A DNA stretch of 64,000 nt from Myxococcota bacterium (lineage in GTDB: Bacteria; Myxococcota_A; UBA796; CAJQPC01), in contig DASCPX010000246.1 in assembly GCA_036012755.1 (NCBI GenBank), positions 1 through 64,000 on the forward strand, given 5' to 3'. Numbering within the stretch: position 1 is the first letter of the stretch; every line of letters begins with the position of its first letter. Positions 2,582-63,550 of this stretch are shown here, piece by piece. The notes under the pieces were generated by a model, which worked only from the letters and a program-made list of their open reading frames with translations, did no database searches and had not been told where the DNA came from. The position numbers and the translations under genes are program-made.

Positions 2582-5014
2582 CTAGAAGAAGGAGCCGATC
2601 GAGAAGTCGAAGACGCTGGTGCGCTCGTCCTCGTAGGGGGCGATGGGGAAGCCCCACTCGAAGCGGAGGGGGCCGATGGGGGAGAACCACCGGATACCGA
2701 AGCCGTAGCTGTAGCGGAGCCCCGCGACGTTGATGTGCTCCTCGTCGTAGGGGCCGTTGAAGGCGTTGCCCGCGTCGAAGAAGACCACCGCGGAGATGCC
2801 AGCGGCCTTGATGATCGGTGACTCCAGCTCGAAGTTGTTGATCCAGGTCTCGGTGCCGCCGACGATGAGGCGGTCGTCAGCGTGGGTCGGGTCGTCGGAC
2901 TGGAGGTTGCGGAGGCTCGGGCCGAGGCTGTACCAGTTGTAGCCGCGCACGGAGTTGATGCCGCCAGCCCGATAGCGGTGGATGTAGGGCACGACCGAGC
3001 CGTCGGTGGACTGGATGTGGCCCAGCGTCGTGTTGAAGCGGAAGATCAGGATGTCCTTGCCCGGGATGACCGGCTGGAACCACCGCACGTTCATGCGGTT
3101 CTCCCAGAGGTTGAACTGGCCGCCGAGCACGTTCACGACATCGTCGGTGTCACCGATACGGAAGCCGCCCGAGAGCTCGGAGCTGGCCGAGGCATAGAGG
3201 CCCTTCGTCGCCTTGATCCGGTTGTCGCGCTTGTCGACGTTGAGGTTCAGGCCCACGGTGGAGGTCAGGCCGTTGCGGTAGAGCTGACCACCGAAGAGGT
3301 GGGCCTGGTAGGGCGTGATGCGGGTGAGCCCGACGTCCTCCAGCGTGTAGTTCACGGTCAGGCGCCAGTCGTCCCGCCGATCGAGGTAGCGACCGACCGC
3401 GACTCCCCCACCCCGCTGGTACTGGTCCTCGACGTACTGCTGGCTGATGCTGAAGCCATCGACCTTGAGCGTCCAGCGCGTGTCGAGCAGGTAGGGATCG
3501 AAGAAGGACAGGTTCCACTGCTGGCGCAGGCTGGACCAGTTGATCGCGGCGTTCATGATGTAGCCGAGACCCAGGAAGTTCTGCTTGCTGACAGAGCCCG
3601 TGAGCACGAAGTTCTCGAGGTTCGAGAACCCCATGCCGACCGAGAAGCTGCCCGTGGGCTGTTCGACCACGTCGACGTTCATGTCGAGCACGTCCGCGGA
3701 CGCCCCCCGAGGAGTCGTGATGCGGACCTCCTCGAAGAAGCCGAGGCGCTCGAGGCGCTGGCGGGACTCGCGGATCTGGCTGCCGTTGTAGATCTCCCCT
3801 TCGTTGATGGGGATCTCCCGGCGGACGACCTTGTCCCAGGTCGGATCGTTGCCTGTGATGTTGATGCGCCCGATGCGGACCTTCTCTCCCCTGCTGATGA
3901 GGAAGGTCACGTCGACGACCTCGCTCTCGGGGTCGGTCCGGGTGTCCGGGTAGACGTTCACGAAGGCGTAGCCCTGGTCCCCATAGAGATCAGAGATGCG
4001 CTGCATCGTCAGCTGGACGTCCGAGAGCTTGAACCAGTCGCCGGTCTCCAAGGGCTGCGCGGCGCTGCTGTCGGCCGAGTAGTCGAAGAGCCGCCGCAGG
4101 CGAGGCAGGCGCCGGGCCTTCTCGTCCTGGACCTCCTTGACCGTCTCGCCACGCACGAGCCGCATCACGGCGTCCTCTGTGAGGCCCTCTTCCTCGACCC
4201 ACTCGCCGTCCGTGCGGAGGTGGCCGAGCTTGTAGCGCTTGCCCTCGTCGACGTGCACCGAGATGTAGATGTAGCGCTTGTCCGGGGAGAGGTAGACCTT
4301 TGGCTCGCCGATGGTGGCGTCGACGTAGCCCTCCTCCAGGTACACCGACTTGATGATCATGATGTCGGCGTCGAGGGCCTCCCAGTTGAAGGTGCCCGAA
4401 GAGGTCAGCCAGGGCGCGATGCCCCCCTCGCGGGTCTGGAGGAAGCGCTTGATCTTCCGGTCGGGGACGCCCTCGTTGCCCGTGATGTCGATGCTCTGGA
4501 CGATGACCTTGCGGTTCTCGACGATGTCGAAGGTGAGCTCGACGAGGTCGTCTCCGACCTCTGTCAGGTTCGGGTCGACCTCTGCGAGGAAGTAGCCCTT
4601 CTCGACGTAGAGGTCGCGGATGCGCTGCTGGTTCAGCGCTATGTCCGTGTCGTTGAGGACTGAGTACGGCGTGATGTCGATGACCTCGCGCAGATCGTCC
4701 TCGTCGACCTTCTTGTTGCCAGCGACGAGGACCTCGCGGACCGCGGGGTTCTCCTCGACGAGGAAGGTGACGATGACACCACCGGCCACGTCCGCGTCGG
4801 CGACGTCGACCTGGACATCCTCGAAGAAGCCCGTGCGGTAGACGGACTTGATGTCGCGGCGGATCTTCCAGGGCGCGAGGGTCTCGCCCTCCTGGAGCTG
4901 GACGGCGGCCAGCACCGCGGCGTCCTCGATGCGCTTGTTGCCCTCGACGCGGAGGTCCTTCACGGTCCCCGACTGCGCCAGGGCGATCCAGAAGGCGAGC
5001 AGGAGGTGAATCAC
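2582..5014 (-). CDS. bamA: Outer membrane protein assembly factor BamA
   Basis: POTRA repeats (VEGNKRIE, ITGN), VRGY motif, SPIGPLRFEWG, C-terminal Phe. Confidence 0.97.
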   Translation of the reverse strand: MIHLLLAFWIALAQSGTVKDLRVEGNKRIEDAAVLAAVQLQEGETLAPWKIRRDIKSVYRTGFFEDVQVDVADADVAGGVIVTFLVEENPAVREVLVAGNKKVDEDDLREVIDITPYSVLNDTDIALNQQRIRDLYVEKGYFLAEVDPNLTEVGDDLVELTFDIVENRKVIVQSIDITGNEGVPDRKIKRFLQTREGGIAPWLTSSGTFNWEALDADIMIIKSVYLEEGYVDATIGEPKVYLSPDKRYIYISVHVDEGKRYKLGHLRTDGEWVEEEGLTEDAVMRLVRGETVKEVQDEKARRLPRLRRLFDYSADSSAAQPLETGDWFKLSDVQLTMQRISDLYGDQGYAFVNVYPDTRTDPESEVVDVTFLISRGEKVRIGRINITGNDPTWDKVVRREIPINEGEIYNGSQIRESRQRLERLGFFEEVRITTPRGASADVLDMNVDVVEQPTGSFSVGMGFSNLENFVLTGSVSKQNFLGLGYIMNAAINWSSLRQQWNLSFFDPYLLDTRWTLKVDGFSISQQYVEDQYQRGGGVAVGRYLDRRDDWRLTVNYTLEDVGLTRITPYQAHLFGGQLYRNGLTSTVGLNLNVDKRDNRIKATKGLYASASSELSGGFRIGDTDDVVNVLGGQFNLWENRMNVRWFQPVIPGKDILIFRFNTTLGHIQSTDGSVVPYIHRYRAGGINSVRGYNWYSLGPSLRNLQSDDPTHADDRLIVGGTETWINNFELESPIIKAAGISAVVFFDAGNAFNGPYDEEHINVAGLRYSYGFGIRWFSPIGPLRFEWGFPIAPYEDERTSVFDFSIGSFF

Positions 5015-5724: not shown

Positions 5725-7018
5725 CGCGGAGGCCCTCGACGGGGTTCAACGAGGCCGCTCGTATCGCGGGGTAGAGGGTGGCGAGGAAGCAGATCACCAC
5801 GGCGCTGACGGCGACGATCGCGACCATGACCGGCTCGATCTCCACCGGAAGGGTGTCGAGGTAGTAGACGTCGGTGTTCAGCGGGTAGCCATAGGTCTCG
5901 AGGAACCAGCAGCCGGCGAGCCCGAGCGTCGTGCCGATGCAGCCACCGACGAGCCCGATGAGCACGCCCTCGGTCATGAAGATCGCGAGGATCTGCCGCC
6001 TGGTGGCGCCCATCGCCTTCATGATGGCGATCTCGCGACCCTTCGTGAGCACCACGAGGATCATCGTGCCGACGATGTTCAGCGAGGCGACGCTGACGAT
6101 GAGGCTCAGGATGAGCCCCATGACCACCTTCTCGAGCTTCAGCGCGTCGAAGAGGTTGCGGTTCAGGTTCTTCCAGTGCCGCGTGTAGTACGGGTACTGG
6201 AGCTCGCTCTCGATTGCCAGCGCGACCGGGTCGACGTCGTAGATGTCCTCGACCGTGACCTCGAGCCCGGTCACGGCGTCGCCCATCTTCAGAAGCTCCT
6301 GGGCGTCTTCGATGGTGATGTAGGTCCACTTCGTGTCGTACTCGTACATGCCCGAGTAGTAGATCCCGGCGACGCGGAAGGGCTTCACAGAGGGCAGCGG
6401 CGTGCCGAAGGGCCCGATGCCGTTGCCCAGCGGGTTGATGATGTGGACCTTGTCTCCCACGAAGACCTTGAGGCTGTGGGCGAGCTCCTCGCCGATCAGG
6501 ATGCCGGGGATCTCGTCGGTGTCGTCTTCGTCCTGCAGGAAGCTCCGCTGCGGGCTGCCGAGCGCGTCCAGGATTGCCTGGCGCTCCAAGTCGCTCGACG
6601 GCGCACCGTCGGGGCCCATGATGAGGTTCTTCGAAAGGTCGACGACGTCCCTGACCAGGGTCGTGTCGATGCCCTTGACGATCACCCCCTCGCCGGAGGA
6701 GTGCTCCGACTTGACCATCATCTCCGTGTAGATGAAGGGCGCGGCGCCGACGACCCCGTCGACCTCGGCGGCGGTCTCGGTGGCGCTCAGGTAGTCCTCG
6801 ATCGGCGCCCCGTAGCGGAGGACGACGATGTGGGCGTTGCTGCCGAGGATCTTGTCGCGCAGGTCGATCTCGAAGCCCGCCATCACCGAGAGCACGATGA
6901 TGAGCGCGCACACGCCGATGGTCACGCCCAGCGTGGAGATGGCCGTGATGGCGGAGACACCCAGCTCCTGGCTGCGTCCACGAAGGTGGGACAGTGCGAT
7001 GACAACGGCGAAACGCAA
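5717..7018 (-). CDS. lolE: Lipoprotein-releasing ABC transporter permease LolC/E
   Basis: IGVCALIIVLSVMAGF, GMYEYD, REIAIMKAMGA and ATLYPAIRAASLNPVEGLR: FtsX/MacB-type architecture. Confidence 0.92.
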   Translation of the reverse strand: MRFAVVIALSHLRGRSQELGVSAITAISTLGVTIGVCALIIVLSVMAGFEIDLRDKILGSNAHIVVLRYGAPIEDYLSATETAAEVDGVVGAAPFIYTEMMVKSEHSSGEGVIVKGIDTTLVRDVVDLSKNLIMGPDGAPSSDLERQAILDALGSPQRSFLQDEDDTDEIPGILIGEELAHSLKVFVGDKVHIINPLGNGIGPFGTPLPSVKPFRVAGIYYSGMYEYDTKWTYITIEDAQELLKMGDAVTGLEVTVEDIYDVDPVALAIESELQYPYYTRHWKNLNRNLFDALKLEKVVMGLILSLIVSVASLNIVGTMILVVLTKGREIAIMKAMGATRRQILAIFMTEGVLIGLVGGCIGTTLGLAGCWFLETYGYPLNTDVYYLDTLPVEIEPVMVAIVAVSAVVICFLATLYPAIRAASLNPVEGLRGE

Positions 7019-7024
7019 GGTCGG

Positions 7025-8521
7025 TCAGTCGCTCTCGGGGCTTCCCTGGGTGCCGAGGGGGCGGCGGGTCGGGAAGAGGATGACCTCGCGGATCGAGGGT
7101 TGGTTGCACAGCAGCATGACGAGGCGGTCGATGCCTATGCCCTCGCCGGCCGTCGGCGGCATTCCGTAGGACAGGGCGCGCACGTAGTCGGCGTCGAAGA
7201 ACATGGCCTCGTCGTCTCCGCCGGCCTTGGCCTCGGCCTGGGCCTGGAACCGAGCCGCCTGGTCCACAGGGTCGTTGAGCTCGCTGAAGCCATTGGCGAT
7301 CTCGGCGCCGGCGACGACGAGCTCGAAGCGGTCGACGACAGAGGGGTCGTCGTCGTTCCGGCGAGACAGCGGGCTGATCTCGGTGGGGAACTGGGTGACG
7401 AAGATCGGGTCCCGGAGGTGGTCCTCGACGAACTCGTCGAAGTAGAGCTCGAACCACTTGCCGATGGTCGTCGGGAGGTCCTCTGCCCCCGGCTTGTGCT
7501 GGAGCCAGCGAGCGCGCAGCTCGTCTGTGTCCCAGGGGTCTGACAGCCCGGCGTGCTCGGCGATGAGCTCGGCCATGGACGCCCGCCGCCAGGGTCGTGA
7601 GAAGTCGAGGGTCTCCTCGCCATGAGGGAGCTCGGTCGTGCCGAGCAGCTCCTCGCAGAGGGTCACGACGAGGTCCTCTGTGAGGTCCATGAGGTCTTCG
7701 TACGTCGCGTGGGCCTGGTACCACTCGAGCATCGTGAACTCGGGGTTGTGCTTCTGCGACAGCCCCTCGTTCCGGAAGTTCTTGTTGATCTCGTAGACGC
7801 GCTCGAGGCCACCGACGACGAGGCGCTTGAGGTAGAGCTCCGGCGCGACGCGCATGTAGAGGTCCAGCGACAAGGCGTTGTGGTGGGTGACGAAGGGCCG
7901 GGCGTTGGCGCCGCCGGGGATCGTCTGCAGCATCGGTGTCTCGACCTCCATGAAGCCGAGATCGTCGAAGTAGCGCCGGATGCGACGGATGATCGAGGAC
8001 CGCAGCTCGAAGGTGCGGCGCACGTCGTCGTTGACGAAGAGGTCGACGTAGCGCATGCGGTGTCGCATGTCCGGATCCGAGAAGCCCTTGTGCTTGTCAG
8101 GCAGCGACTCGATGCACTTCGAGTAGAGCTTGATCTCGGAGAGGCGCAGCGAGAGCTCACCCTTGCGGGTGCGCATGAGCCTGCCCTTGGCCCAGACCCA
8201 GTCGCCGAGGTCGAGCTTCTTCCAGACGGTGTCGAAGGCCGTCTCTCCGATGTCGTTTCGGCGCACGAAGAGCTGGATGCGTCCGGACTGGTCCTGGATG
8301 CGCGCGAAGCCGGCCTTGCCCATCTCGTTCTTGAAGCGCAGGCGCCCGGCCACGACGAAGGTCCGGTCGATGGCCGTGAGCGACTCGTCGTCCTTGTCAC
8401 CTCCGAGAGCGACGACATCTCCCAGCCGGTCGGTGACCGGCAGCCCGCTCGGGTAGGGCGCCACGCCCGCCTCACGCAAGGCGGCGAGCTTCTCGAGCCG
8501 CTTCGGATCGAAGGGGTACAT
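7025..8521 (-). CDS. lysS: Lysine--tRNA ligase (class II)
   Basis: RMRYVDL, GGANARPF, APELYLKRL, FRNEG, HNPEFTMLE, GMPPTAGEGIGIDRL. Confidence 0.98.
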   Translation of the reverse strand: MYPFDPKRLEKLAALREAGVAPYPSGLPVTDRLGDVVALGGDKDDESLTAIDRTFVVAGRLRFKNEMGKAGFARIQDQSGRIQLFVRRNDIGETAFDTVWKKLDLGDWVWAKGRLMRTRKGELSLRLSEIKLYSKCIESLPDKHKGFSDPDMRHRMRYVDLFVNDDVRRTFELRSSIIRRIRRYFDDLGFMEVETPMLQTIPGGANARPFVTHHNALSLDLYMRVAPELYLKRLVVGGLERVYEINKNFRNEGLSQKHNPEFTMLEWYQAHATYEDLMDLTEDLVVTLCEELLGTTELPHGEETLDFSRPWRRASMAELIAEHAGLSDPWDTDELRARWLQHKPGAEDLPTTIGKWFELYFDEFVEDHLRDPIFVTQFPTEISPLSRRNDDDPSVVDRFELVVAGAEIANGFSELNDPVDQAARFQAQAEAKAGGDDEAMFFDADYVRALSYGMPPTAGEGIGIDRLVMLLCNQPSIREVILFPTRRPLGTQGSPESD

Positions 8522-55923: not shown

Positions 55924-57111
55924 TCAGTAGCGAAGCACCAGCTTTCTCAGGTCCGCCAGCGCGACCTCGCTCACCGTCGCAGACCCGGCCAGCACCGCCA
56001 ACAGCGTGGAGAAGACCTCCGGGTTGCGAGCCAGGTTCTCGACCACGTAGCCGCGGAGCATCGGCTGGTGGACCCACCACAGGATGAGCTCGGTCAGGCG
56101 CAGCGGGTCCTTCAGCGCCACGGCCAGGCCCTCGGCATAGGGCCGGAGCAGGGCTTCGGTGGCCCCGTCAGGCAGCGCCTCCGCGAGCACGCGCGCCGCC
56201 AACCCTGCGTGTGCCAGGGCCACGCTCAGGCCCTCTCCGGTGATCGGATCGAGGAAGCCGGCGGCGTCGCCTACCAGCAGGGTCCGATCACTGACGATGT
56301 CCTTCACGGTCTGGCGCAAAGGCCCGGTCAACATCGCCTCGGAGATCACCTCGCTGCCCTCGAGCCAGGTCTCGAGCGAAGCGCAGTCTCCAGCCAGCCG
56401 AAGGAGTCCCCCTTCCAGGTCCCCACCCAGGGTGGCGCTGACCTCCTTCTCACAGAGGAAGGCCAGGTTGACGAGGCCCTCGCCCACCGGCGTGAGGTAG
56501 ACCTCGGAGCCCTCGCCCAGGTGGACCTCGACGAGCTCTGGTCCGGCCCGTCCGGCGGCCAGCTGCAGGTGTAGGCGGGCTCCGTAGCGGGGCCTGCCAG
56601 CCGGGCTCATGCGCAACCCCAGCTTGCGGCGGATCATCGAGTTGAGACCGTCGGCCCCGACGAGCGCCCGAGCCTCCAGGGTCCCCATGGCCGACTCCAC
56701 GCGCACGCCATCTTCCTCCACATGGAACCCGGTCACCTCCACCTCGGTGTGGAGGCGCACCTCTGCCCGGGAGGCGGCCGCCTCCTGGAAGATGGGGTCC
56801 ATGTGGAGCCGCCGCAGGGCCAGGCCGTGGTCGAAGCCCTGGACCTCGGGGAAGCGCCCCTCGGCCCGGCGGGCCCCGTCGTGGTAGGCGATGCCAAAGA
56901 AGGGCTGAGCTCCGGCCTGGACCAGGCGCTCCCGCAGACCGAGGGCCTCCAGCGCGGCCACGCCGTGGGGCATGAGGCCCTCGCCACAGACCTTGTCGCG
57001 AGGGAAGGCTGCCCGGTCCAGCACCAGCACCTCCAGACCACGGTCAGCCAGGCCCATTGCGGTGGCGCAGCCGGAGGGTCCGGCTCCTACGATGATGATG
57101 TCGGCGTCCAC
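55924..57111 (-). CDS. NAD(P)/FAD-dependent oxidoreductase (geranylgeranyl reductase-like)
   Basis: IVGAGPSG, FPRDKVCGEG, GADG, LVGDAAGFLDPITGEG. Confidence 0.9.
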   Translation of the reverse strand: MDADIIIVGAGPSGCATAMGLADRGLEVLVLDRAAFPRDKVCGEGLMPHGVAALEALGLRERLVQAGAQPFFGIAYHDGARRAEGRFPEVQGFDHGLALRRLHMDPIFQEAAASRAEVRLHTEVEVTGFHVEEDGVRVESAMGTLEARALVGADGLNSMIRRKLGLRMSPAGRPRYGARLHLQLAAGRAGPELVEVHLGEGSEVYLTPVGEGLVNLAFLCEKEVSATLGGDLEGGLLRLAGDCASLETWLEGSEVISEAMLTGPLRQTVKDIVSDRTLLVGDAAGFLDPITGEGLSVALAHAGLAARVLAEALPDGATEALLRPYAEGLAVALKDPLRLTELILWWVHQPMLRGYVVENLARNPEVFSTLLAVLAGSATVSEVALADLRKLVLRY

Positions 57112-57157
57112 GGTCTCCCTCGCTGCTGCTCGGCCTACATCCAGCATAGGATTCGGC

Positions 57158-58099
57158 ATGCGCGACCTCACCCGCCCGCTCTTCCACTGGTACGTCGACT
57201 GCACCTCTGGCAAGGAGCTCGTCTTCGCGCTCTACACCCGCCCCTGCCGCTACGCGCGCTGCGCCTTCTGCTCCCTGCCCAGCCTGGCCGAAGGCGGCGA
57301 GCGGGTGCGCCCCCAGGACATCGAGGCCCAGGTGGACTGGATCCTCTCCCACTACGAGCCCACCCAGTTGGAGCAGGTGACCAAGGTCTCGATCTACACG
57401 GCCTCGTCCGGCCTGGACCAGAAGTGCTTGCCGACCCGCAGCCTGATGTACCTGCTGCTGAAGGTCTGCGACCTCCCCGAGCTGGAGCTGGTCTCACTCG
57501 AGACGCGCCCCGAGTACGTCGAGGACTGGGAGCTGCGGGTCCTGACCGAGGTGTTGGGAGAGGGTGTCCAGGTCGAGGTGGCCATCGGCTACGAGACCCA
57601 CGACCCGGACCTTCGCAACCGCGTCCTGGGAAAAGGCCTGATCGAGCCGGAGCTGCGCAAGCTGATGCGCACGATCGCTGATCACGGCGGCGCGTTGAAG
57701 GCCTACCTGATGCTCAAGCCTCACCACAGCCTCAGCGAAGAAGGGGGGGTGCAAGAGGCCATCAACGGGCTCGAGCATCTGCGCAGCCTCGGCGAGGAGC
57801 ATGGCGTGCCAGTGTCGATACACCTGAACCCCACCTACATCGCGGAGGGCTGCGCCCTGACCGAGGAGCTGGTCGCGGCGGGTTACCAACCCCCGGAGCT
57901 GAGCTCGGTGATCCGCGTGGCGGAGGGGGCGCTGAGCAGGGGACTGCCTCTCTACGTGGGCCTGGACGACGAGGGCCTGGCCCTCCAGGGGGGCACCTTC
58001 CGCTCCACCGGGCTCGACGCGGAGCGCGCGGTGGCGGCGATCCTCTCCTTCAACCGCCACCAGGACATCGACCGCCTGAAGCTCGAGGCCGGAGCGTGA
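57158..58099 (+). CDS. Radical SAM protein similar to the archaeosine-synthesis RaSEA family
   Basis: LYTRPCRYARCAFC, ETRPEYV, EVAIGYET, KAYLMLKP, HLNPTYI..G. Confidence 0.8.
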   Translation: MRDLTRPLFHWYVDCTSGKELVFALYTRPCRYARCAFCSLPSLAEGGERVRPQDIEAQVDWILSHYEPTQLEQVTKVSIYTASSGLDQKCLPTRSLMYLLLKVCDLPELELVSLETRPEYVEDWELRVLTEVLGEGVQVEVAIGYETHDPDLRNRVLGKGLIEPELRKLMRTIADHGGALKAYLMLKPHHSLSEEGGVQEAINGLEHLRSLGEEHGVPVSIHLNPTYIAEGCALTEELVAAGYQPPELSSVIRVAEGALSRGLPLYVGLDDEGLALQGGTFRSTGLDAERAVAAILSFNRHQDIDRLKLEAGA

Positions 58100-58929
58100 G
58101 CAAGGCAAGCACGCGGGTGCAGTTCACCCCCTACGAGATCTCCATGTGTCTCTACGACGTGCACCGCACGCGGCTGTGGAAGCAGGCCATCGAGGACCTC
58201 GTCCGACCAGGCGACGTCGTGGTGGACGCGGGCGCCGGCACCGGGATCCTCAGCGTCTTCGCGGCGCTGGATGGAGCCGCTCGGGTACACGCCGTCGAGC
58301 TGCACCCGCGCTTCGTCGCGTTGATCGAGCACATGGCTGCGAGGAACGGACTCAGCGACCGCGTCCACGTGCACCACGCCGACGCCAGCCAGCTGGAGCT
58401 GCCCGAGCCTGCCGATCTGCTGATCTGCGAGCTCCTCTGCACGGGCCAGTTCTTCGAGCCCGAGGTGCAGGTGATCAACCACCTACGGCAGTTCCTGGCC
58501 CCAGGAGGCCGGATCCTGCCCCGAAAGGTGGAGTCCTTCCTCCAGCTCCTGGACGCACAGGAGGAGCTCTACGGCGTGCGCATCGACACCGACAGCCGCT
58601 CTGATCTGCTGGCCGGCGACGAGCCGGTGTCCACCAGGACCCTCTACGACGTCATCGACCTGACCCAGCCCGTCGAGCCCGCTCGCGTCGACACCAGCGT
58701 GGTCGTGCGCGCCCGCAAGACACGGGTGGCCGACGCCGTGGTCATCACGAGCCGCGCCTGGCTGACAGAGGACCTCGTCACGGAGCGCACTCGCTTCCTC
58801 TACAACCCAGAGGTCATCTTCCTGAAGGAGCCTGTGCACCTGGTAGAGGACGAGACCTACAGGGTCGACATCGCCTACGACTACGGCTGCGACACCCTCG
58901 ACGTGGAGCTGGCGGTCACACCGGCCTGA
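58096..58929 (+). CDS. Class I SAM methyltransferase, PRMT-like
   Basis: D..RT..WKQAI, VVDAGAGTGILS, VHAVE, DLLICELLCTGQFFE, FLAPGGRILP; beta-rich C-terminal domain. Confidence 0.85.
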   Translation: MSKASTRVQFTPYEISMCLYDVHRTRLWKQAIEDLVRPGDVVVDAGAGTGILSVFAALDGAARVHAVELHPRFVALIEHMAARNGLSDRVHVHHADASQLELPEPADLLICELLCTGQFFEPEVQVINHLRQFLAPGGRILPRKVESFLQLLDAQEELYGVRIDTDSRSDLLAGDEPVSTRTLYDVIDLTQPVEPARVDTSVVVRARKTRVADAVVITSRAWLTEDLVTERTRFLYNPEVIFLKEPVHLVEDETYRVDIAYDYGCDTLDVELAVTPA

Positions 58930-58933
58930 GTGC

Positions 58934-60484
58934 CTACCACCCGGCGTCGGTGCCCAGCGGTGCGTCGCCGTAGCGCACCCGCCGTCGAGCATCGAAGGGC
59001 CCCTCCAGCACGGTCCATCCCTCCCGCGGCACCTCCAACAGGACGCTGTCCACCTGCTCCGCCGCGCCGAGCCCGACGTGAGCGATCGGCGGAGCCCAGA
59101 CGCCGTACCCCGGCTCGTCGGTGATCAGGACCGTGCGGGTCACACCTCCTGCCTCCACGTGGGCGATGCTGCCGGTCGGGGCCTCGATCTCCAGCCAGTT
59201 CTCAGCCGTGCAGCCATCGGACATCATCAACCAACCCCCGTGCGACATCTCCCCGGCCAGCACGTCCAGGACCCCGTCGCCGTTGAAGTCCCGGGCCAGC
59301 ACCGCTCGGGCGCCAGTCACCTGGGGAAACCCCAGCGCCTCGCTCTGGTCGGTCCACACGCCGTCCGACCCGCGGACGCCGACGAAGAAGGGCCAGTAGA
59401 CCGGGTCGAAGCCCACGAAGTCGCCAGTGCCCGCCACGATCTCCACGGTGCCGTCGTTGTCCAGGTCGGCCATGGCGCTGCCCCAGACCATCTGACCTTC
59501 CGCCAACGGCTCCAGCATCGCGTTGCTGGTGTCCACCCAGTCGTCGCCCATGCGCGTCAGGATCAAGTGTTCCCCGGTCGCCCCGAGGTACATGTCCAAC
59601 ACGCCGTCCTCGCTGAAGTCCGCGAAGCTGACGCTCATGCACCCCAACCGGCAGTCGGATCCCCGGCCGCCCACCGCATCGAGGCCGCCCTGGCCGTCGT
59701 TCTGGATAAGGGTGTTGGGGCCGACATAGCCCCGGTCGTTGCACTCGTAGACGTCCAGATCTCCGTCTCCGTCCAGGTCCAGGGTCACCGCGTCGAAGCT
59801 CATCCCCCAGCGGTCGGCCTCTCCCCCAGCCAGCGTGGGCTCGGGGTCGAAGTCCCCCCCCTCGTTCCAGAACACCCCTGATCGGTTGTCCTCGTTGACC
59901 TGGGTGCCGTCGTTGAAGCCAGCGAAGATGTCGGCGTCGCCGTCCTGGTCGAGGTCGACCACCAGCACCTCGAAGATGGCCCGGCCAGCCGACCAGGTGC
60001 CGTATTCGACGAGCACCTCCTCACGCTGGTCATCGGTGCCCCATGCATAGACCAGGACCAGCCCCTCCCCGGCCAGCACGAGGTCCGGGCGGCCGTCCCC
60101 GTCCAGGTCGCCCGAGGCCATCGTCAGGAAGGTCAGGCTGTACGACTCGGTGTCCCACTCGCCGCTCTCCAGCTCCACCCAGGCCAGACCCCTGTCGAAA
60201 GTCGTGAACACCAGGCGGTCCCCGACCATCGCCACCTCGCCCCGCTCGTCCAAGAAGGCGTTCTCGGGGGGGACAGGCAGGCGGTCGCTCTGGTCGGAAT
60301 AGCTCAAGGCGACCGGCTCCGGACAGTCCTGCAGGGGGCCGAGGGTCCAGGTGCCCGTGGCGCGCGGTCCAGCGTCTTCCGGCGCGCTGGTGTCCTGCGG
60401 GTGGCAGTCTCCGTCTTCGCCGAGCGCGAAGCCCGGGGGACACCACCCGGACGAACAGGCGAAGATGGAGAGAAGGCAGATCAA
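58934..60484 (-). CDS. CRTAC1/ASPIC-UnbV-like FG-GAP (VCBS) repeat lipoprotein
   Basis: DLDGDGRPDL, DLDQDGDAD, DLDNDG, DFNGDG repeats; NWLEI..AHVGLG..VDSV ASPIC-like C-terminus; IFAC lipobox. Start approximate. Confidence 0.82.
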   Translation of the reverse strand: MICLLSIFACSSGWCPPGFALGEDGDCHPQDTSAPEDAGPRATGTWTLGPLQDCPEPVALSYSDQSDRLPVPPENAFLDERGEVAMVGDRLVFTTFDRGLAWVELESGEWDTESYSLTFLTMASGDLDGDGRPDLVLAGEGLVLVYAWGTDDQREEVLVEYGTWSAGRAIFEVLVVDLDQDGDADIFAGFNDGTQVNEDNRSGVFWNEGGDFDPEPTLAGGEADRWGMSFDAVTLDLDGDGDLDVYECNDRGYVGPNTLIQNDGQGGLDAVGGRGSDCRLGCMSVSFADFSEDGVLDMYLGATGEHLILTRMGDDWVDTSNAMLEPLAEGQMVWGSAMADLDNDGTVEIVAGTGDFVGFDPVYWPFFVGVRGSDGVWTDQSEALGFPQVTGARAVLARDFNGDGVLDVLAGEMSHGGWLMMSDGCTAENWLEIEAPTGSIAHVEAGGVTRTVLITDEPGYGVWAPPIAHVGLGAAEQVDSVLLEVPREGWTVLEGPFDARRRVRYGDAPLGTDAGW

Positions 60485-61277: not shown

Positions 61278-62246
61278 TTGAGAGCGCTCGTCACAGGCGG
61301 CTCCGGCTTCATCGGGTCCCACGTGGTGCGCGCGCTGCTCGAGGCCGGTCGGCGTGTCAGGGTGCTCCACCTGCCTGGTGACCCGTGCAGCAACCTGGCA
61401 GGGCTCGACGTGGAGCGGGTGCCCGGAGATCTGCGGTGGGATCCGATCCCGGTCGAGGGCTGTGAGCTGGTCTTCCACCTGGCAGCGGTCTACAGCCTCT
61501 GGCTTCCGGATCCTGGTCTCTTCGAGGCGGTCAACGTCGAGGGGACCCGGCGCGTCCTGCAGGCGGCGGCGCGGGTCGGTGCCCGGGTAGTCCACACGAG
61601 CTCGATCGCGGTCTTCGGAGGCCAGGGACAGACCGCGGAGGCCAACGAGGACAGCCCGTTTCGCCTCGGCATGGACCACTACTGCTGCTCCAAGGAGCGC
61701 TCCCACCGCCTGGCCGAGGAGCACGGAGCCGTGATCGTGGCCCCCGCGGTGCCGATCGGTCCCGGCGACCTGGCCCCCACACCTACGGGGAGGATCCTCG
61801 TCGAGGCCGCTCGCCTGCCGGTCGTCCCGGTCACCCGGGGCGAGATGAACTTCGTCGATGTGCGCGACGTCGCCCGCTGGCATGTCCTGGCGGCGGACCG
61901 CGGCGAGGCTGGCCAGAGCTACATCCTCGGGGGCGCCAACCACGCACTGATCGACGTGGCGCGAGCCGCCCGAGAGGTGCTCGGACGCCGGACGGTGCTC
62001 TTGGAGTTGCCCCCGCGGGCCCTGCTCCCGGCAGCCCATTGCATGATCTTGCGAGCGCGCTTGACCGGCCGCCCGCCGCCCTTCACGCCCGCCACCCTGG
62101 CCATCGCCGAGCTGGGGCTGCGAGCGAACTGCTCACGCGCACACGGCCTCCTCGGCCCGCCTTGTTTCGCCATGGAGCGGTCGGTCGCCGACGCCCTCGC
62201 CTGGTTCGCTCAGGCCGGGACGATCGTCGCGAACAGTCCGCCGTAG
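61278..62246 (+). CDS. NAD-dependent epimerase/dehydratase (HpnA/dihydroflavonol reductase-like)
   Basis: GAGGAGG ribosome-binding site; VTGGSGFIG, FHLAA, HTSS, YCCSK, GPGD..PTPTG, VDVRDVA. Confidence 0.9.
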   Translation: MRALVTGGSGFIGSHVVRALLEAGRRVRVLHLPGDPCSNLAGLDVERVPGDLRWDPIPVEGCELVFHLAAVYSLWLPDPGLFEAVNVEGTRRVLQAAARVGARVVHTSSIAVFGGQGQTAEANEDSPFRLGMDHYCCSKERSHRLAEEHGAVIVAPAVPIGPGDLAPTPTGRILVEAARLPVVPVTRGEMNFVDVRDVARWHVLAADRGEAGQSYILGGANHALIDVARAAREVLGRRTVLLELPPRALLPAAHCMILRARLTGRPPPFTPATLAIAELGLRANCSRAHGLLGPPCFAMERSVADALAWFAQAGTIVANSPP

Positions 62247-63550
62247 CGATCGAGGGTCTTCTGCCAGGTGGAGTCTGGCGAGCGGGCGTAGAAACCCGCC
62301 AACTCCTCGTGGCTGTCCTCGGACACCAGGATCCGCTCTCCGGTCCTCTGGGCGACGTCAGCGCAGAAGAAGCCGACCTTGAGGCGGTCGCAGCTCTCGA
62401 CGTAGCGGGCGTAGATGTCCTCGAAGGGCTCATCCAGCAGGTTCCCCAGCGCTGCCTTCGAGATGCACACCGTGACGTTGCCGGCGATGTCGACGTTGAG
62501 CAGCTTCCCACCGGCCCCCGCGCAGCCGAGGAAGGTGTCGATGGTGCCGAAGAGGAGGGCCACCGGGCGGCCCAGCTCCCGGCCGGTCTCGACGATGCGC
62601 TCGGCGACCTCGTGGCACTCCTCTGGTCGGCTGAAGCTGTCCACCTGGACTCCGCGCCCCGTCGCCAGCTGAGGGATGAAGTTCACGGCCACGCCGGGGT
62701 GGATGCCCTCGACGAAGCGCAGGAAGTCCGCGATCCGTGCTCGATTGCGGAAGCGCTGGCGGCCCACCACGCAGTTGACGTAGGTGAGCATGCCGGCCCG
62801 GGCGGAGCGGCGCAGAGCGGAGGTAGCCGCCTCGAAGGCACCCTCGAACCCGCGGACTCGATCGAAGGCGGCAGCGTCGGCGCCGTCCAGGCTCACGAAG
62901 ATCCCGGTCAGCCCAGCCTCCTCGAGCTCCGCCAGGCGCCGGTCGTCAAGGCCCAGGCCTGTCGTGAACATGCGCACCTCCGAGCCCGCAGAGAGGACAC
63001 GCACGGCCTTTTTGAGGCGGCTGTACCGGGTCAGCGGCTCGCCCCCGGAGATGTTCACCACCGGGACCCTCAAGCGAGCGACCTGGCGCGCCACCTCGAG
63101 CACAGCCTGATCACCGATGTCCTGGACTTCGCCGGCGGAGGCCCCTGCGTAGCAGTAGTCGCAGGTGCAGGGGCAGGCCCCGGTGAGGGAGAAATACAAC
63201 ACGTTGGGCCCCTGGCCGGGCAGGGCGAAGCGGCGCAGGGCCTCGTCGAAGTGCGGCCCGTCGAAGCGGGGCATGAAGATGTGCGGGAAGAGACCGTGGC
63301 GGCCTCGTAGCATCGACGCCGAGCCGAAGTGGCGGCAGGTGATCTCCATGAGGATGGCCCCGGCCAGGGCATTGCGGGCTGTGTCCGTGATCTCGGAGGG
63401 GCGCTGGTGGAGCTCCCGCAGCGCCTTCCTGGCGACGTGGGTGGCGAGCAAGGCGCGGGCGGCGAGCGGGCGGTCTGGGATGCCCGTCAGGGGCAGCCCC
63501 AGCAGAAGACGCGCCGTACGGTTCGGGGGAGAGGGATGCACGTCTCCCAT
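62210..63550 (-). CDS. Radical SAM protein with a Twitch/SPASM-like C-terminus
   Basis: CPCTCDYC, SGGEP, VSLDG, GCAGAG..NVD..GNV.VC...GNL. Confidence 0.88.
   Translation of the reverse strand: MGDVHPSPPNRTARLLLGLPLTGIPDRPLAARALLATHVARKALRELHQRPSEITDTARNALAGAILMEITCRHFGSASMLRGRHGLFPHIFMPRFDGPHFDEALRRFALPGQGPNVLYFSLTGACPCTCDYCYAGASAGEVQDIGDQAVLEVARQVARLRVPVVNISGGEPLTRYSRLKKAVRVLSAGSEVRMFTTGLGLDDRRLAELEEAGLTGIFVSLDGADAAAFDRVRGFEGAFEAATSALRRSARAGMLTYVNCVVGRQRFRNRARIADFLRFVEGIHPGVAVNFIPQLATGRGVQVDSFSRPEECHEVAERIVETGRELGRPVALLFGTIDTFLGCAGAGGKLLNVDIAGNVTVCISKAALGNLLDEPFEDIYARYVESCDRLKVGFFCADVAQRTGERILVSEDSHEELAGFYARSPDSTWQKTLDRYGGLFATIVPA

Follow-up and report, generated by a model that had tools for sequence, protein, structure and literature searches.

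The gene pair P0001-P0002 from a Myxococcota bacterium is, by comparison of sequences, a conserved, undescribed bacterial two-gene module, which joins a radical SAM enzyme of the TIGR01210/RaSEA superfamily to a class I methyltransferase with a PRMT fold. The pair was analyzed in a window of 64,000 nucleotides (contig DASCPX010000246.1, positions 1 to 64,000) of a genome that is 96% complete. Our tentative reading is that both products work jointly on a single amidino/guanidino-type nitrogen in a small molecule, which would be imported via an ABC importer that co-occurs with the pair; the module is probably not for a reaction on archaeosine tRNA. No description of the pair was found in open-access papers and bioRxiv, as judged from the listings. 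Feature coordinates are given in Table 1.

Table 1. Positions in the window of the two genes, their overlap and the sites discussed in the text
Feature	Position	Strand	Basis
Radical SAM enzyme gene P0001, 313 aa	57158..58099	+	ORF and translation; TIGR01210 match; start ATG 57158, stop TGA 58099
Codons of C30-x4-C35-x2-C38 triad, predicted [4Fe-4S]/SAM site	57245..57271	+	Sequence read directly
GTGA overlap of gene 1 stop and gene 2 start	58096..58099	+	GTG 58096-58098 shares letters with TGA 58097-58099
PRMT-fold class I methyltransferase gene P0002, 277 aa	58096..58929	+	Start GTG 58096, stop TGA 58929; PRMT sequence and structure matches
SAM-binding motif I DAGAGTGIL, D44-L52	58225..58251	+	Sequence read directly; aligned to PRMT motif I
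Double-E loop C111-E112-LLCTGQFF-E121	58426..58458	+	Aligned to PRMT6 and CARM1 Glu pair

The 4-nt GTGA overlap suggests translational coupling of P0001 and P0002, and both the overlap and all motifs listed in a sequence-only reading of the window were recovered in the two genes. The Cys motif of P0001, ALYTRPCRYARCAFC (C30-x4-C35-x2-C38), is unchanged in 24/24 aligned relatives and is accompanied by SLETRPEYV, VEVAIGYETHD, LKAYLMLKPHH and HLNPTYI. P0002 carries YDVHRTR, DAGAGTGILS, VHAVEL and the double-E loop ICELLCTGQFFE (E112, eight residues, E121). The N-termini of homologues agree with the ATG start of P0001 and fit the GTG start of P0002.

The sole NCBIfam match of P0001 is TIGR01210 (E 1.4e-30; residues 17-309, positions 12-291 of 313), with a score of 106.6 bits that is about half the curated cut-off of this RaSEA equivalog model (212.15 bits). 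The predicted model (pLDDT 88) has a radical SAM fold, and its Foldseek matches are Elp3, PFL activase, queuine lyase (6p78) and RlmN; full-length homology, the Cys triad and the fold of the TIGR01210-like branch of the radical SAM superfamily are all present. A tree of P0001 relatives was built with IQ-TREE PMSF from 69 rows; its RaSEA clade comprises 17 rows, with proteins scoring above or close to the TIGR01210 cut-off. The clade of P0001 and its paired relatives (100/100) and the RaSEA clade (100/99) are separated by a 96/85 branch, and their Cys spacing mostly differs: CX4CX2C occurs in 31/32 rows of four bacterial-branch groups of the superfamily, whereas the RaSEA clade has mostly CX8-9CX2C (12/16 rows, with CX4CX2C in 3/16). 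P0001 is thus placed by its sequence in the TIGR01210/RaSEA superfamily but in a separate bacterial clade, not in RaSEA. The earlier reading had called it RaSEA-like and looked to phylogeny for an archaeal affinity; the likeness stands at the level of the superfamily only.

A representative library contains 732 relatives (E ≤ 1e-3), and most of those inspected are bacterial and unnamed; ESM Atlas matches fell in generic radical SAM/RaSEA clusters only. For the sister clade (44-48% identical), the neighbors differ between loci, and a P0002-like gene adjoined in 0/3 loci with enough flank (L023, L026 and L027); loci L025, L028 and L029, which end within the gene, were left out of this count.

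Compared with RaSEA itself, P0001 is of the same size, is homologous over nearly its full length and has a single [4Fe-4S] Cys triad. The differences, in addition to score, clade and Cys spacing, are that the hosts of the pair are bacterial, that the partner is a PRMT-fold methyltransferase and not ArcS, and that ArcS, arcTGT and QueC were not found in the source genome. In searches of that genome, ArcS (DUF5591) gave 0 matches, the arcTGT profile matched nothing but two bacterial Tgt genes, both scoring under the cut-off, and no QueC was found over the cut-off (best match 24 bits). The TGT matches lie only on two other contigs (C190 and C27), which agrees with the earlier observation that the window holds no arcS, tgt or que gene. 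An archaeosine link of the module, which that reading had raised, is unsupported by these sequence searches, and so is, for the pair clade, the label “archaeosine synthase beta-subunit” carried by homologues. One organizational parallel to RaSEA is that P0001 is encoded beside a group-transfer enzyme, and a relative is fused to one, while RaSEA, according to PMC11298593, has to be bound to ArcS, its own group-transfer partner, in order to work.

P0002 is a true PRMT-fold enzyme, barrel included, as judged from its sequence and predicted model, and the PRMT-like assignment made earlier is borne out. In a PDB profile search, PRMTs made up 60/60 among the matches listed (63 at E ≤ 1e-5), with PRMT6, CARM1 and PRMT1 as the best sequence matches. 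The model (pLDDT 76, pTM 0.75) matched PRMT7/6/1/5 over its full length in Foldseek (E 1e-18 to 1e-16; TMq 0.64-0.76), covering both the Rossmann domain and the barrel, and its C-terminal half is beta-rich as had been proposed (DSSP strands 144-276). In the alignments, E112 and E121 fall on the Glu pair of PRMT6 and CARM1, and the stretch from C111 to P122 is unchanged in 11/11 homologues. DAGAGTGILS and the post-I acidic residue E68, aligned to PRMT6/CARM1, are conserved in 11/11, with motif I unchanged or carrying A/S at one position. Likeness to PRMT6, CARM1, PRMT1 and PRMT7 extends to the D..RT motif, motif I, the post-I acidic residue, the double-E loop and the Rossmann plus beta-barrel arrangement. 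The eukaryotic enzymes differ in having a core of about 320-350 aa versus 277 aa in P0002, and their sequence homology to P0002 ends after about residue 150; P0002 is in addition a bacterial protein whose gene is paired with that of a radical SAM enzyme. At the place of the THW loop, P0002 has, by eye, the invariant T232-(R/K)233-F234-LYNPE. Residues 157-174, where the dimerization arm would be expected, form a conserved loop with pLDDT < 50; in the model the arm looks absent, and the protein is about 45-70 residues below PRMT cores.

Other labels on P0002 homologues were compared with these matches. PrmA identity was rejected: TIGR00406 scored 44.4 bits versus a cut-off of 183 and matched profile positions 146-236 only. 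The Pfam PrmA model does cover the core of the methyltransferase (47 bits, profile 148-256 of 296), but the N-terminal L11-binding part of PrmA is unmatched and PRMTs score higher over the whole fold. The NCBI label “50S ribosomal protein L11 methyltransferase” on some homologues is most likely an over-annotation. JGI labels P0002 homologues “predicted RNA methylase”.

The two genes were found together wherever the pair-clade loci could be inspected. A P0002 homologue adjoins the radical SAM gene in 12/12 genome loci, one of which is cut by a contig end after 91 aa, and in metagenome locus L024 (13/13 combined). These loci are labeled Bacteroidota, Chlorobiota, “Deltaproteobacteria” and “Proteobacteria/Rickettsiales” and span GC contents of 0.31 to 0.73, with the gene order reversed in L003 and L012. 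Cross-phylum identity of the pair proteins is 60-85%, and the identities of relatives' two proteins to P0001 and P0002 covary (r = 0.96, n = 12, descriptive only). We regard the features seen in the pair as beyond chance: the Cys triad (24/24), E112/E121 (11/11) and adjacency (12/12 genome loci plus L024) are all conserved. A natural fusion, P0267 (645 aa, 2 contigs), joins a P0002-like domain, which aligns to P0002 residues 12-277 (E 8e-16) with the double-E loop retained, to a RaSEA-like domain, and is placed on a different tree branch from the pair clade; in another relative, P0295, a RaSEA-like domain is fused to another class I methyltransferase. Conservation of the pair across genomes, which the sequence-only reading had asked about, is thus confirmed, and none of three outcomes named beforehand as telling against the pair (grouping of P0001 with YhcC/HemN proteins, a PrmA-type P0002 without the barrel, or a pair not conserved elsewhere) was found. 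The module is rare: its only orthologue among 201 genomes sampled from the source phylum was in the source genome, and the only one among 151 genomes of a Bacteroidales-type order was in the genome on which that sample was centered (G204). That P0001 and P0002 serve unrelated functions and adjoin one another through descent alone is very improbable. The complex prediction for the two proteins was uninformative (score 0.00), which says nothing for or against binding; this reading is contradicted by the fusion and by re-ordered adjacency across 13/13 loci of widely different GC whose neighbors otherwise differ.

Little else around the pair is conserved. ORF clustering of 12 loci and Pfam annotation of 56 neighbors in 7 low-GC loci revealed no neighbor family common to more than 2 loci. 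The FAD (geranylgeranyl) reductase at 55924-57111, earlier proposed as a partner, had 0 tblastn matches (E ≤ 1e-5) in 12 pair loci and was dropped; the GntR regulator and the FG-GAP protein likewise had no match at this threshold in the same loci. Both the window and L006 have SPASM radical SAM genes close to the pair, which are not orthologous to each other (22% identity). Defense or mobile genes lie close to the pair in some loci only. An anti-phage role was rejected: PADLOC gave no match for P0001, and for the core of P0002 it matched only mad2 of MADS (83 bits, profile 275-400 of 492). Phage records gave 0 pair matches and viral contigs a match to motif I only, and the plasmid search returned one weak match (24% identity), in a Streptomyces plasmid cluster where P450, glycosyltransferase and carbamoyltransferase genes surround the RaSEA-like gene. 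The GC of the pair equals that of its surroundings and thus gives no hint of recent transfer. A promoter and terminator scan of 56600-59400 found nothing, and a search for riboswitches and other Rfam elements around the pair and the ABC cassette in 14 sources found one tRNA only and no pointer to a ligand.

An unusual ABC cassette encodes one or more coiled-coil proteins, an NMT1/SsuA-like binding protein with an OmpA-like C-terminus, a permease and an ATPase. In two loci from two phyla it runs on directly from the pair in the same orientation, lying upstream in L004, 12 nt before the radical SAM gene, and downstream of the pair in L009; it adjoins the pair in only 2/13 loci. In L004 the cassette and the pair make up an operon of seven genes, with the binding protein encoded at 2584-4086; the source genome has a copy of the binding protein on contig C183 (L035, 7278-8918). 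A full-length homologue of the binding protein was present in 9/9 other pair-bearing genomes tested and in 4/4 genomes with only a distant RaSEA-like gene (13/13 combined), against 8/98 and 10/149 genomes without a RaSEA-like gene in the same samples; since the compared genomes are partly related and are MAGs that may be incomplete, this co-occurrence could mirror a shared niche. The cassette is also found without a RaSEA-like gene (a TIGR01210 recheck of such genomes gave 0/5). The best families of the binding protein are the urea-carboxylase-associated SBP (66 bits) and SsuA (63 bits), both far below cut-offs, and these sequence matches name no ligand.

For the chemistry of the module, we drew on RaSEA and queuine lyase, the only described members of the RaSEA superfamily that we found. 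By analogy to both, P0001 would carry out 5'-deoxyadenosyl radical chemistry at a carbon attached to the amidino/guanidino nitrogen. The reaction predicted is an O2-independent N-dealkylation, because RaSEA frees an amidine nitrogen of its lysine carbon chain and queuine lyase makes preQ1. Queuine lyase (6p78) resembles P0001 as a small bacterial radical SAM enzyme with CX4CX2C, matching in structure (Foldseek E 4e-6, TMt 0.59) and marginally in sequence (phmmer E 0.23); it differs in length (251 aa versus 313 aa), and we know of no methyltransferase partner reported for it. As described in PMC7694415, it belongs to a salvage route in which preQ1 is produced from queuine, a small molecule taken up by the cell.

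For P0002, the double-E loop would by analogy hold the planar cationic group, with N-methylation by SN2 transfer from SAM. On inspection by eye the THW loop is replaced by T-(R/K)-F, so that recognition of a guanidinium group is not certain. Elp3 offers a parallel for two activities on one site: its radical SAM domain is joined to a group-transfer domain and both act on one substrate atom. It is the best structural match of P0001 (8ptx_C, E 9e-7), but its transfer domain is an acetyltransferase, its substrate is tRNA U34 and P0001 has no sequence-family match to it.

The sequence-only reading had proposed an undescribed two-step pathway that acts on an amidino/guanidino group of tRNA, protein or a metabolite. 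The amidino/guanidino part is still the best chemical reading, while a tRNA or protein substrate now appears less likely than a small molecule, because the ABC cassette was found in every tested genome with a RaSEA-like gene and because both proteins are acidic and have no RNA-binding domain. The pI is 4.5-5.5 in 9/11 P0002-type methyltransferases and < 6 in 19/24 radical SAM rows, and Pfam searches of P0001 and P0002 found no RNA-binding domain and no PUA. Further points against the small-molecule reading are that cross-phylum identity as high as that of the pair, with no other conserved neighbor, would also fit a conserved macromolecular substrate, and that methylation and dealkylation of a compound in one pathway have no obvious metabolic logic.

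Protein modification is the alternative that survives best, and we consider it unlikely. Here P0002 would methylate an arginine of a conserved cellular protein, and P0001 would modify the same residue further or demethylate it without O2, as a writer/eraser pair. All closest solved relatives of P0002 act on protein arginine, the acidity of P0001 and P0002 is as expected for binding a basic protein, and very high cross-phylum conservation amid unrelated neighborhoods fits a ubiquitous conserved substrate; the rarity of the module does not, no candidate target gene lies nearby in 13 loci, and the link to the ABC importer would be left unexplained. A precedent for methylation of free arginine also weighs against it, in the form of the PRMT-like SznE, which is likened to P0002 by description only and whose biosynthetic cluster has no RaSEA-like enzyme. 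In PMC12637814, SznE is a methyltransferase of a bacterial biosynthetic cluster that was used to seek the enzyme forming omega-N-methylarginine for a small-molecule product, and arginine methylation therefore need not imply a protein substrate.

Modification or salvage of a nucleic-acid base, as a bacterial counterpart of archaeosine/queuosine chemistry on 7-deazaguanine (for example, salvage of a queuine-like precursor followed by methylation), is quite unlikely. RaSEA and queuine lyase, the only characterized relatives of P0001, both act on 7-deazaguanine side chains, and Tgt is present in the source genome and in five further genomes that carry the pair (6/6), whereas QueC over the cut-off is not (0/6); these genomes would therefore depend on salvage. 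As a signature of salvage, however, Tgt without QueC was rejected: QueC over the cut-off is present in only 18/101 sampled genomes of the source phylum and 12/61 of the Bacteroidales-type order, so that QueC-less genomes are the norm in both clades and its absence is uninformative. The position of P0001 outside the RaSEA clade, its marginal similarity to queuine lyase, the absence of ArcS/DUF5591 and arcTGT matches in the source genome and the acidity of two proteins in which no PUA or other RNA-binding domain was found argue against this reading as well.

It is highly improbable that P0001 and P0002 tailor a secondary metabolite or a ribosomally synthesized peptide. Radical SAM and methyltransferase pairs are common in such pathways, one RaSEA-like protein (P0302) is fused to YcaO and another lies in the Streptomyces plasmid cluster, but no biosynthetic core gene and no conserved cluster surround the pair in 13 loci, the intergenic gaps checked (L002 and L004) contain no conserved small ORF or precursor peptide, and the cross-phylum identity of the pair is unusually high for tailoring enzymes.

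Returning to the small-molecule reading, we can outline by analogy a specific form of it that is speculative and, taken as a whole, rather unlikely: an O2-independent pathway for N-alkyl-guanidines or N-alkyl-amidines, in which a radical SAM lyase would cleave an imported arginine-, homoarginine- or taurocyamine-type compound at its N-alkyl bond, a PRMT for small molecules would methylate the guanidino group, whether freed or bound, and an ABC importer with an OmpA-anchored SBP would supply the substrate. RaSEA cuts the same type of N-alkyl bond, in the lysine adduct of preQ0. Oxygenase routes release guanidine, and this pathway, if true, would be their anaerobic counterpart and the first function for a large bacterial branch of the RaSEA superfamily.

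This analysis corrects the annotation of homologues in two cases, namely “archaeosine synthase beta-subunit” for the radical SAM enzyme and “50S ribosomal protein L11 methyltransferase” for its partner. The PRMT fold has been studied mainly in eukaryotes, and the P0002 lineage is a well-conserved bacterial lineage with this fold. The bacterial RaSEA branch gains a fixed PRMT-fold partner, a natural fusion that lends itself to structural study and a co-occurring transporter with a binding protein on which ligands can be screened. If the chemistry proposed here is right, the module would show how anaerobes cut and methylate guanidino/amidino compounds without oxygen.

The two genes of the pair lie on the same strand and overlap by GTGA, and all the motifs that the sequence-only reading had listed for the radical SAM protein (gene 1, P0001) and the PRMT-like methyltransferase (gene 2, P0002) were found in them. 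Predicted starts of both genes agree with homologue N-termini, and the GC content of the pair is that of its surroundings (window GC ~68-70%). Because the gene 5' of the pair, which encodes a geranylgeranyl-reductase-family FAD protein, is divergent and the FG-GAP-type gene 3' is convergent, the pair forms a stand-alone two-gene unit. Possible starts of the FAD gene reach, or run past, that of the opposite-strand radical SAM gene (window 57111-57213), which leaves essentially zero intergenic region, so the promoters of both must be within coding sequence. A second, unrelated radical SAM/SPASM gene (window 62210-63400, - strand), adjoined by a gene for an NAD-dependent epimerase and by an alpha/beta-hydrolase-like ORF, lies 3 kb downstream; its adjacency to the pair is not kept in other loci.

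Coordinates of the pair, the ABC cassette and the tgt genes (L-numbers, comparison loci; G000:C-numbers, contigs of the window's genome)
Feature	Position	Strand	Description
Gene 1 (P0001)	ATG 57158 to TGA 58099	+	ORF, 313 aa
Gene 2 (P0002)	GTG 58096 to TGA 58929	+	ORF, 277 aa
ABC cassette	L004 922-5988; L009 8031-12482; L035 5674-9655; L036-L043		syntenic
Tgt gene	G000:C27, L018 1429-2607	-	full-length bacterial Tgt
Tgt gene	G000:C190, L017 1444-2601	-	full-length bacterial Tgt

Gene 1 matched no Pfam family, and its sole NCBIfam match was TIGR01210 (RaSEA), nearly full length (E 1.4e-30) with a score of 106.6 bits, below the cut-off of 212.15. By sequence, the only solved relative was queuine lyase 6p78 (weak match, E 0.23), which shares the CX4CX2C motif. 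With 24 relatives as input, the structure model (pLDDT 88) had an ordinary radical SAM fold, with Elp3, pyruvate formate-lyase activase, queuine lyase and RlmN as best structural matches. Word-based search returned 216 relatives; among the 120 listed, ~90 were 58-80% identical and came from MAGs whose labels include Bacteroidia and Deltaproteobacteria, where they are unnamed or called 'TIGR01210 family'. Exhaustive search of 50% representatives gave 732 relatives at E <= 1e-3, and an NCBIfam scan of 89 of the 150 listed found the RaSEA cut-off reached by 5 and nearly reached by 11. A tree was built from 69 rows hand-chosen from both searches, omitting fragments and most of the 732 (pair clade 9, sister 5, 'clade 2' 10, N-terminal extension 8, fusions 6, RaSEA/near-RaSEA 16, others 15). 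The pair clade was recovered with 100/100 support and a group at 44-48% identity as its sister, and all 16 RaSEA/near-RaSEA rows formed one clade (100/99) on the far side of a 96/85 branch; an earlier quick tree was consistent with this separation. Cysteine spacing also distinguishes the groups: CX4CX2C in 31/32 rows of four bacterial-branch groups, CX8-9CX2C in 12/16 rows of the RaSEA clade. The proposed RaSEA-like identity thus stands at the level of the superfamily, given the TIGR01210 match, and fails for RaSEA itself, given the sub-cut-off score and separate clade: gene 1 is a member of the RaSEA superfamily and is not RaSEA.

DUF5591/ArcS, arcTGT and QueC above its cut-off were not found in the window's genome (96% complete). 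With the separate clade and the sub-cut-off score, these absences mean that archaeosine synthesis is not the role of gene 1, and a tie of the pair to archaeosine is not supported. The genome has queA and two tgt genes of bacterial type, scoring 479 and 490 bits. In the Tgt copy from the usual queA/secDF neighbourhood, PCYTLRHF replaces the CxCxxC zinc motif, and the other copy has SCGCYTCQ.

Pfam matches of gene 2 were to generic class I methyltransferases (top, PrmA at 47 bits), and no NCBIfam model matched at its cut-off. JGI calls homologues 'predicted RNA methylase', and NCBI sometimes gives them the name 'L11 methyltransferase', which NCBIfam models do not support. The best single-sequence PDB matches were PRMT6 (E 1e-16), CARM1 and PRMT1, and with an 11-homologue profile PRMTs made up all 60 of the matches listed. 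The alignments take in motif I and the post-I Glu as well as the N-terminal D..RT motif and the double-E loop, where E112 and E121 correspond to the two catalytic-loop Glu of PRMTs; C111-P122 is invariant in 11/11 homologues. The gene 2 model (pLDDT 76, pTM 0.75) matched full-length PRMT7, PRMT6, PRMT1 and PRMT5 (E 1e-18 to 1e-16, query-normalised TM-score 0.64-0.76), so the beta-barrel is predicted in this product too. Aligned loop, PDB matches and modelled barrel together bear out the PRMT-like layout proposed from sequence. Compared with PRMT cores, the protein is shorter, residues 157-174 are conserved with low model confidence, and the THW position is taken by an invariant T-(R/K)-F in the homologues (alignment by eye).

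The expectation that the pair is conserved elsewhere was confirmed. Among species-representative genomes, a P0002 homologue stood beside a close gene 1 relative in 12/12 loci, full length in 11 and seen for 91 aa at L007, where the contig ends; a metagenome scan added a thirteenth paired locus (L024), and L029, whose contig ends within gene 1, was left outside the count. GC ranges from 0.31 to 0.73 among these loci, which carry several phylum labels, and the pair proteins are 60-85% identical across phyla. The pair is rare: an orthologue was present in the window's own genome only of 201 in its phylum sample (0/6 of the same family) and in the centre genome only of 151 in the Bacteroidales-type order sample. 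The pair was not found in phage records or viral contigs, and plasmids gave no convincing match. The methyltransferase gene comes first in L003 and L012, and spacing ranges from overlap to ~430 nt. No other conserved neighbours were found across loci; the FAD reductase, which had been proposed as a possible partner, gave no tblastn match in 12 loci and was rejected as part of the system. At L005, a TumE-type toxin gene, preceded by a small ORF, is inserted between the two genes (7050-7727); encoded upstream are Cas6b, RAMP and a PLP enzyme that has a long N-terminal extension. In the 400-nt spacer at L002, a short ORF (6929-7087) ending ...YLYGCDKLETMIEVNSV resembles the methyltransferase C-terminus and looks like a relic of duplication or rearrangement.

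A natural fusion was also found. P0267, a single 645-aa protein present on two contigs, aligns in its N-terminal part to P0002 residues 12-277 (25% identity, E 8e-16, double-E loop retained) and is RaSEA-like in its C-terminal part; in the tree it branches apart from the pair clade. In P0295 a RaSEA-like domain is fused to a class I methyltransferase of a different kind. Adjacency, swapped orders, natural fusion and varied neighbours, taken together, indicate that the two proteins almost certainly serve one pathway, and that the genes are uncoupled is scarcely credible. Physical binding of the two proteins is plausible; RaSEA itself is described as active only in complex with ArcS (PMC11298593). 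Among further RaSEA-like proteins (P0302, P0370, P0311, P0254-type), some are fusions with YcaO, a TIR domain or an EamA transporter domain, and a sizeable group, ~490 aa long, carries an N-terminal domain of ~185 aa. At a sister-clade locus (L027 3199-6002), the start of the RaSEA-like gene lies within a 4-nt overlap with a NodU/CmcH-type carbamoyltransferase gene, and a carbamoyltransferase also occurs in a Streptomyces plasmid cluster (L033) holding a distant relative.

In L004 (Bacteroidia), the pair ends a co-directional run with an ABC cassette, in the order two coiled-coil proteins, binding protein, permease, ATPase, 12-nt gap, radical SAM gene, methyltransferase; L009 ('Deltaproteobacteria') has, on one strand, the pair, a coiled-coil protein, binding protein, permease and ATPase. 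The binding protein is NMT1/SsuA-like with a C-terminal OmpA-like domain. A full-length homologue (E 1e-41 to 1e-152) was present in 9/9 other pair-bearing genomes tested (G000, G201, G202, G204, G205, G356-G359; the L003, L007 and L012 genomes are outside this count), in 4/4 genomes with a distant RaSEA-like gene only (G082, G011, G119, G348), and in 8/98 genomes of the window's phylum and 10/149 of the Bacteroidales-type order without a RaSEA-like gene, counts made after the pattern had been spotted, on partly related genomes and MAGs of uncertain completeness. A TIGR01210 recheck of cassette-positive genomes found a RaSEA-like gene in 0/5, so the relation runs in one direction only. Across 11 loci of these genomes the cassette is syntenic; in the window's genome it lies on another contig (L035), and it occurs in ~7-8% of sampled genomes, in two phyla-level groups. 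Its accessory proteins matched no Pfam or NCBIfam family. Among known families, the binding protein came closest to a urea-carboxylase-associated binding protein, at 66 bits, and to SsuA, at 63 bits, scores that fall far short of the respective cut-offs; its nearest solved relatives are binding proteins for sulfonate and nitrate. No riboswitch was found near pair or cassette.

The PRMT active site holds a planar guanidinium and methylates it. In the RaSEA superfamily, the known chemistry is a radical reaction that breaks the link from an exocyclic nitrogen to its alkyl substituent: RaSEA takes the lysine chain off the preQ0-lysine amidine (PMC11298593), and queuine lyase converts queuine to preQ1 (PMC7694415). 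The simplest reading, as in the sequence-only account, is combined dealkylation and methylation at one nitrogen: the radical SAM enzyme would dealkylate an amidino/guanidino nitrogen and its PRMT-like partner would methylate the same nitrogen, with the steps in either order. Since the pair is linked to an importer, both proteins are acidic (pI) and Pfam gives neither an RNA-binding domain, a small molecule is preferred over tRNA or protein as substrate, albeit tentatively. A protein arginine is unlikely, a nucleic-acid base somewhat more so, and tailoring of a secondary metabolite is improbable. Missing QueC, which had seemed to point to queuosine salvage, was dropped as evidence because QueC absence is the norm in both clades.

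Full-text searches of open-access literature and bioRxiv returned no description of the pair, or of a bacterial RaSEA-like protein with a methyltransferase. Both enzyme families are known, and the pairing, fusion and transporter link appear not to have been described. Other genomes of the window's phylum also encode proteins with 34-44% identity to the PRMT-like core (residues ~17-150, double-E region included; G082:C34, G082:C70, G119:C77, G011:C158, G011:C6 and G011:C113), none of them beside a gene of RaSEA-like type; enzymes with the PRMT fold may be more frequent in this phylum than is usually assumed.
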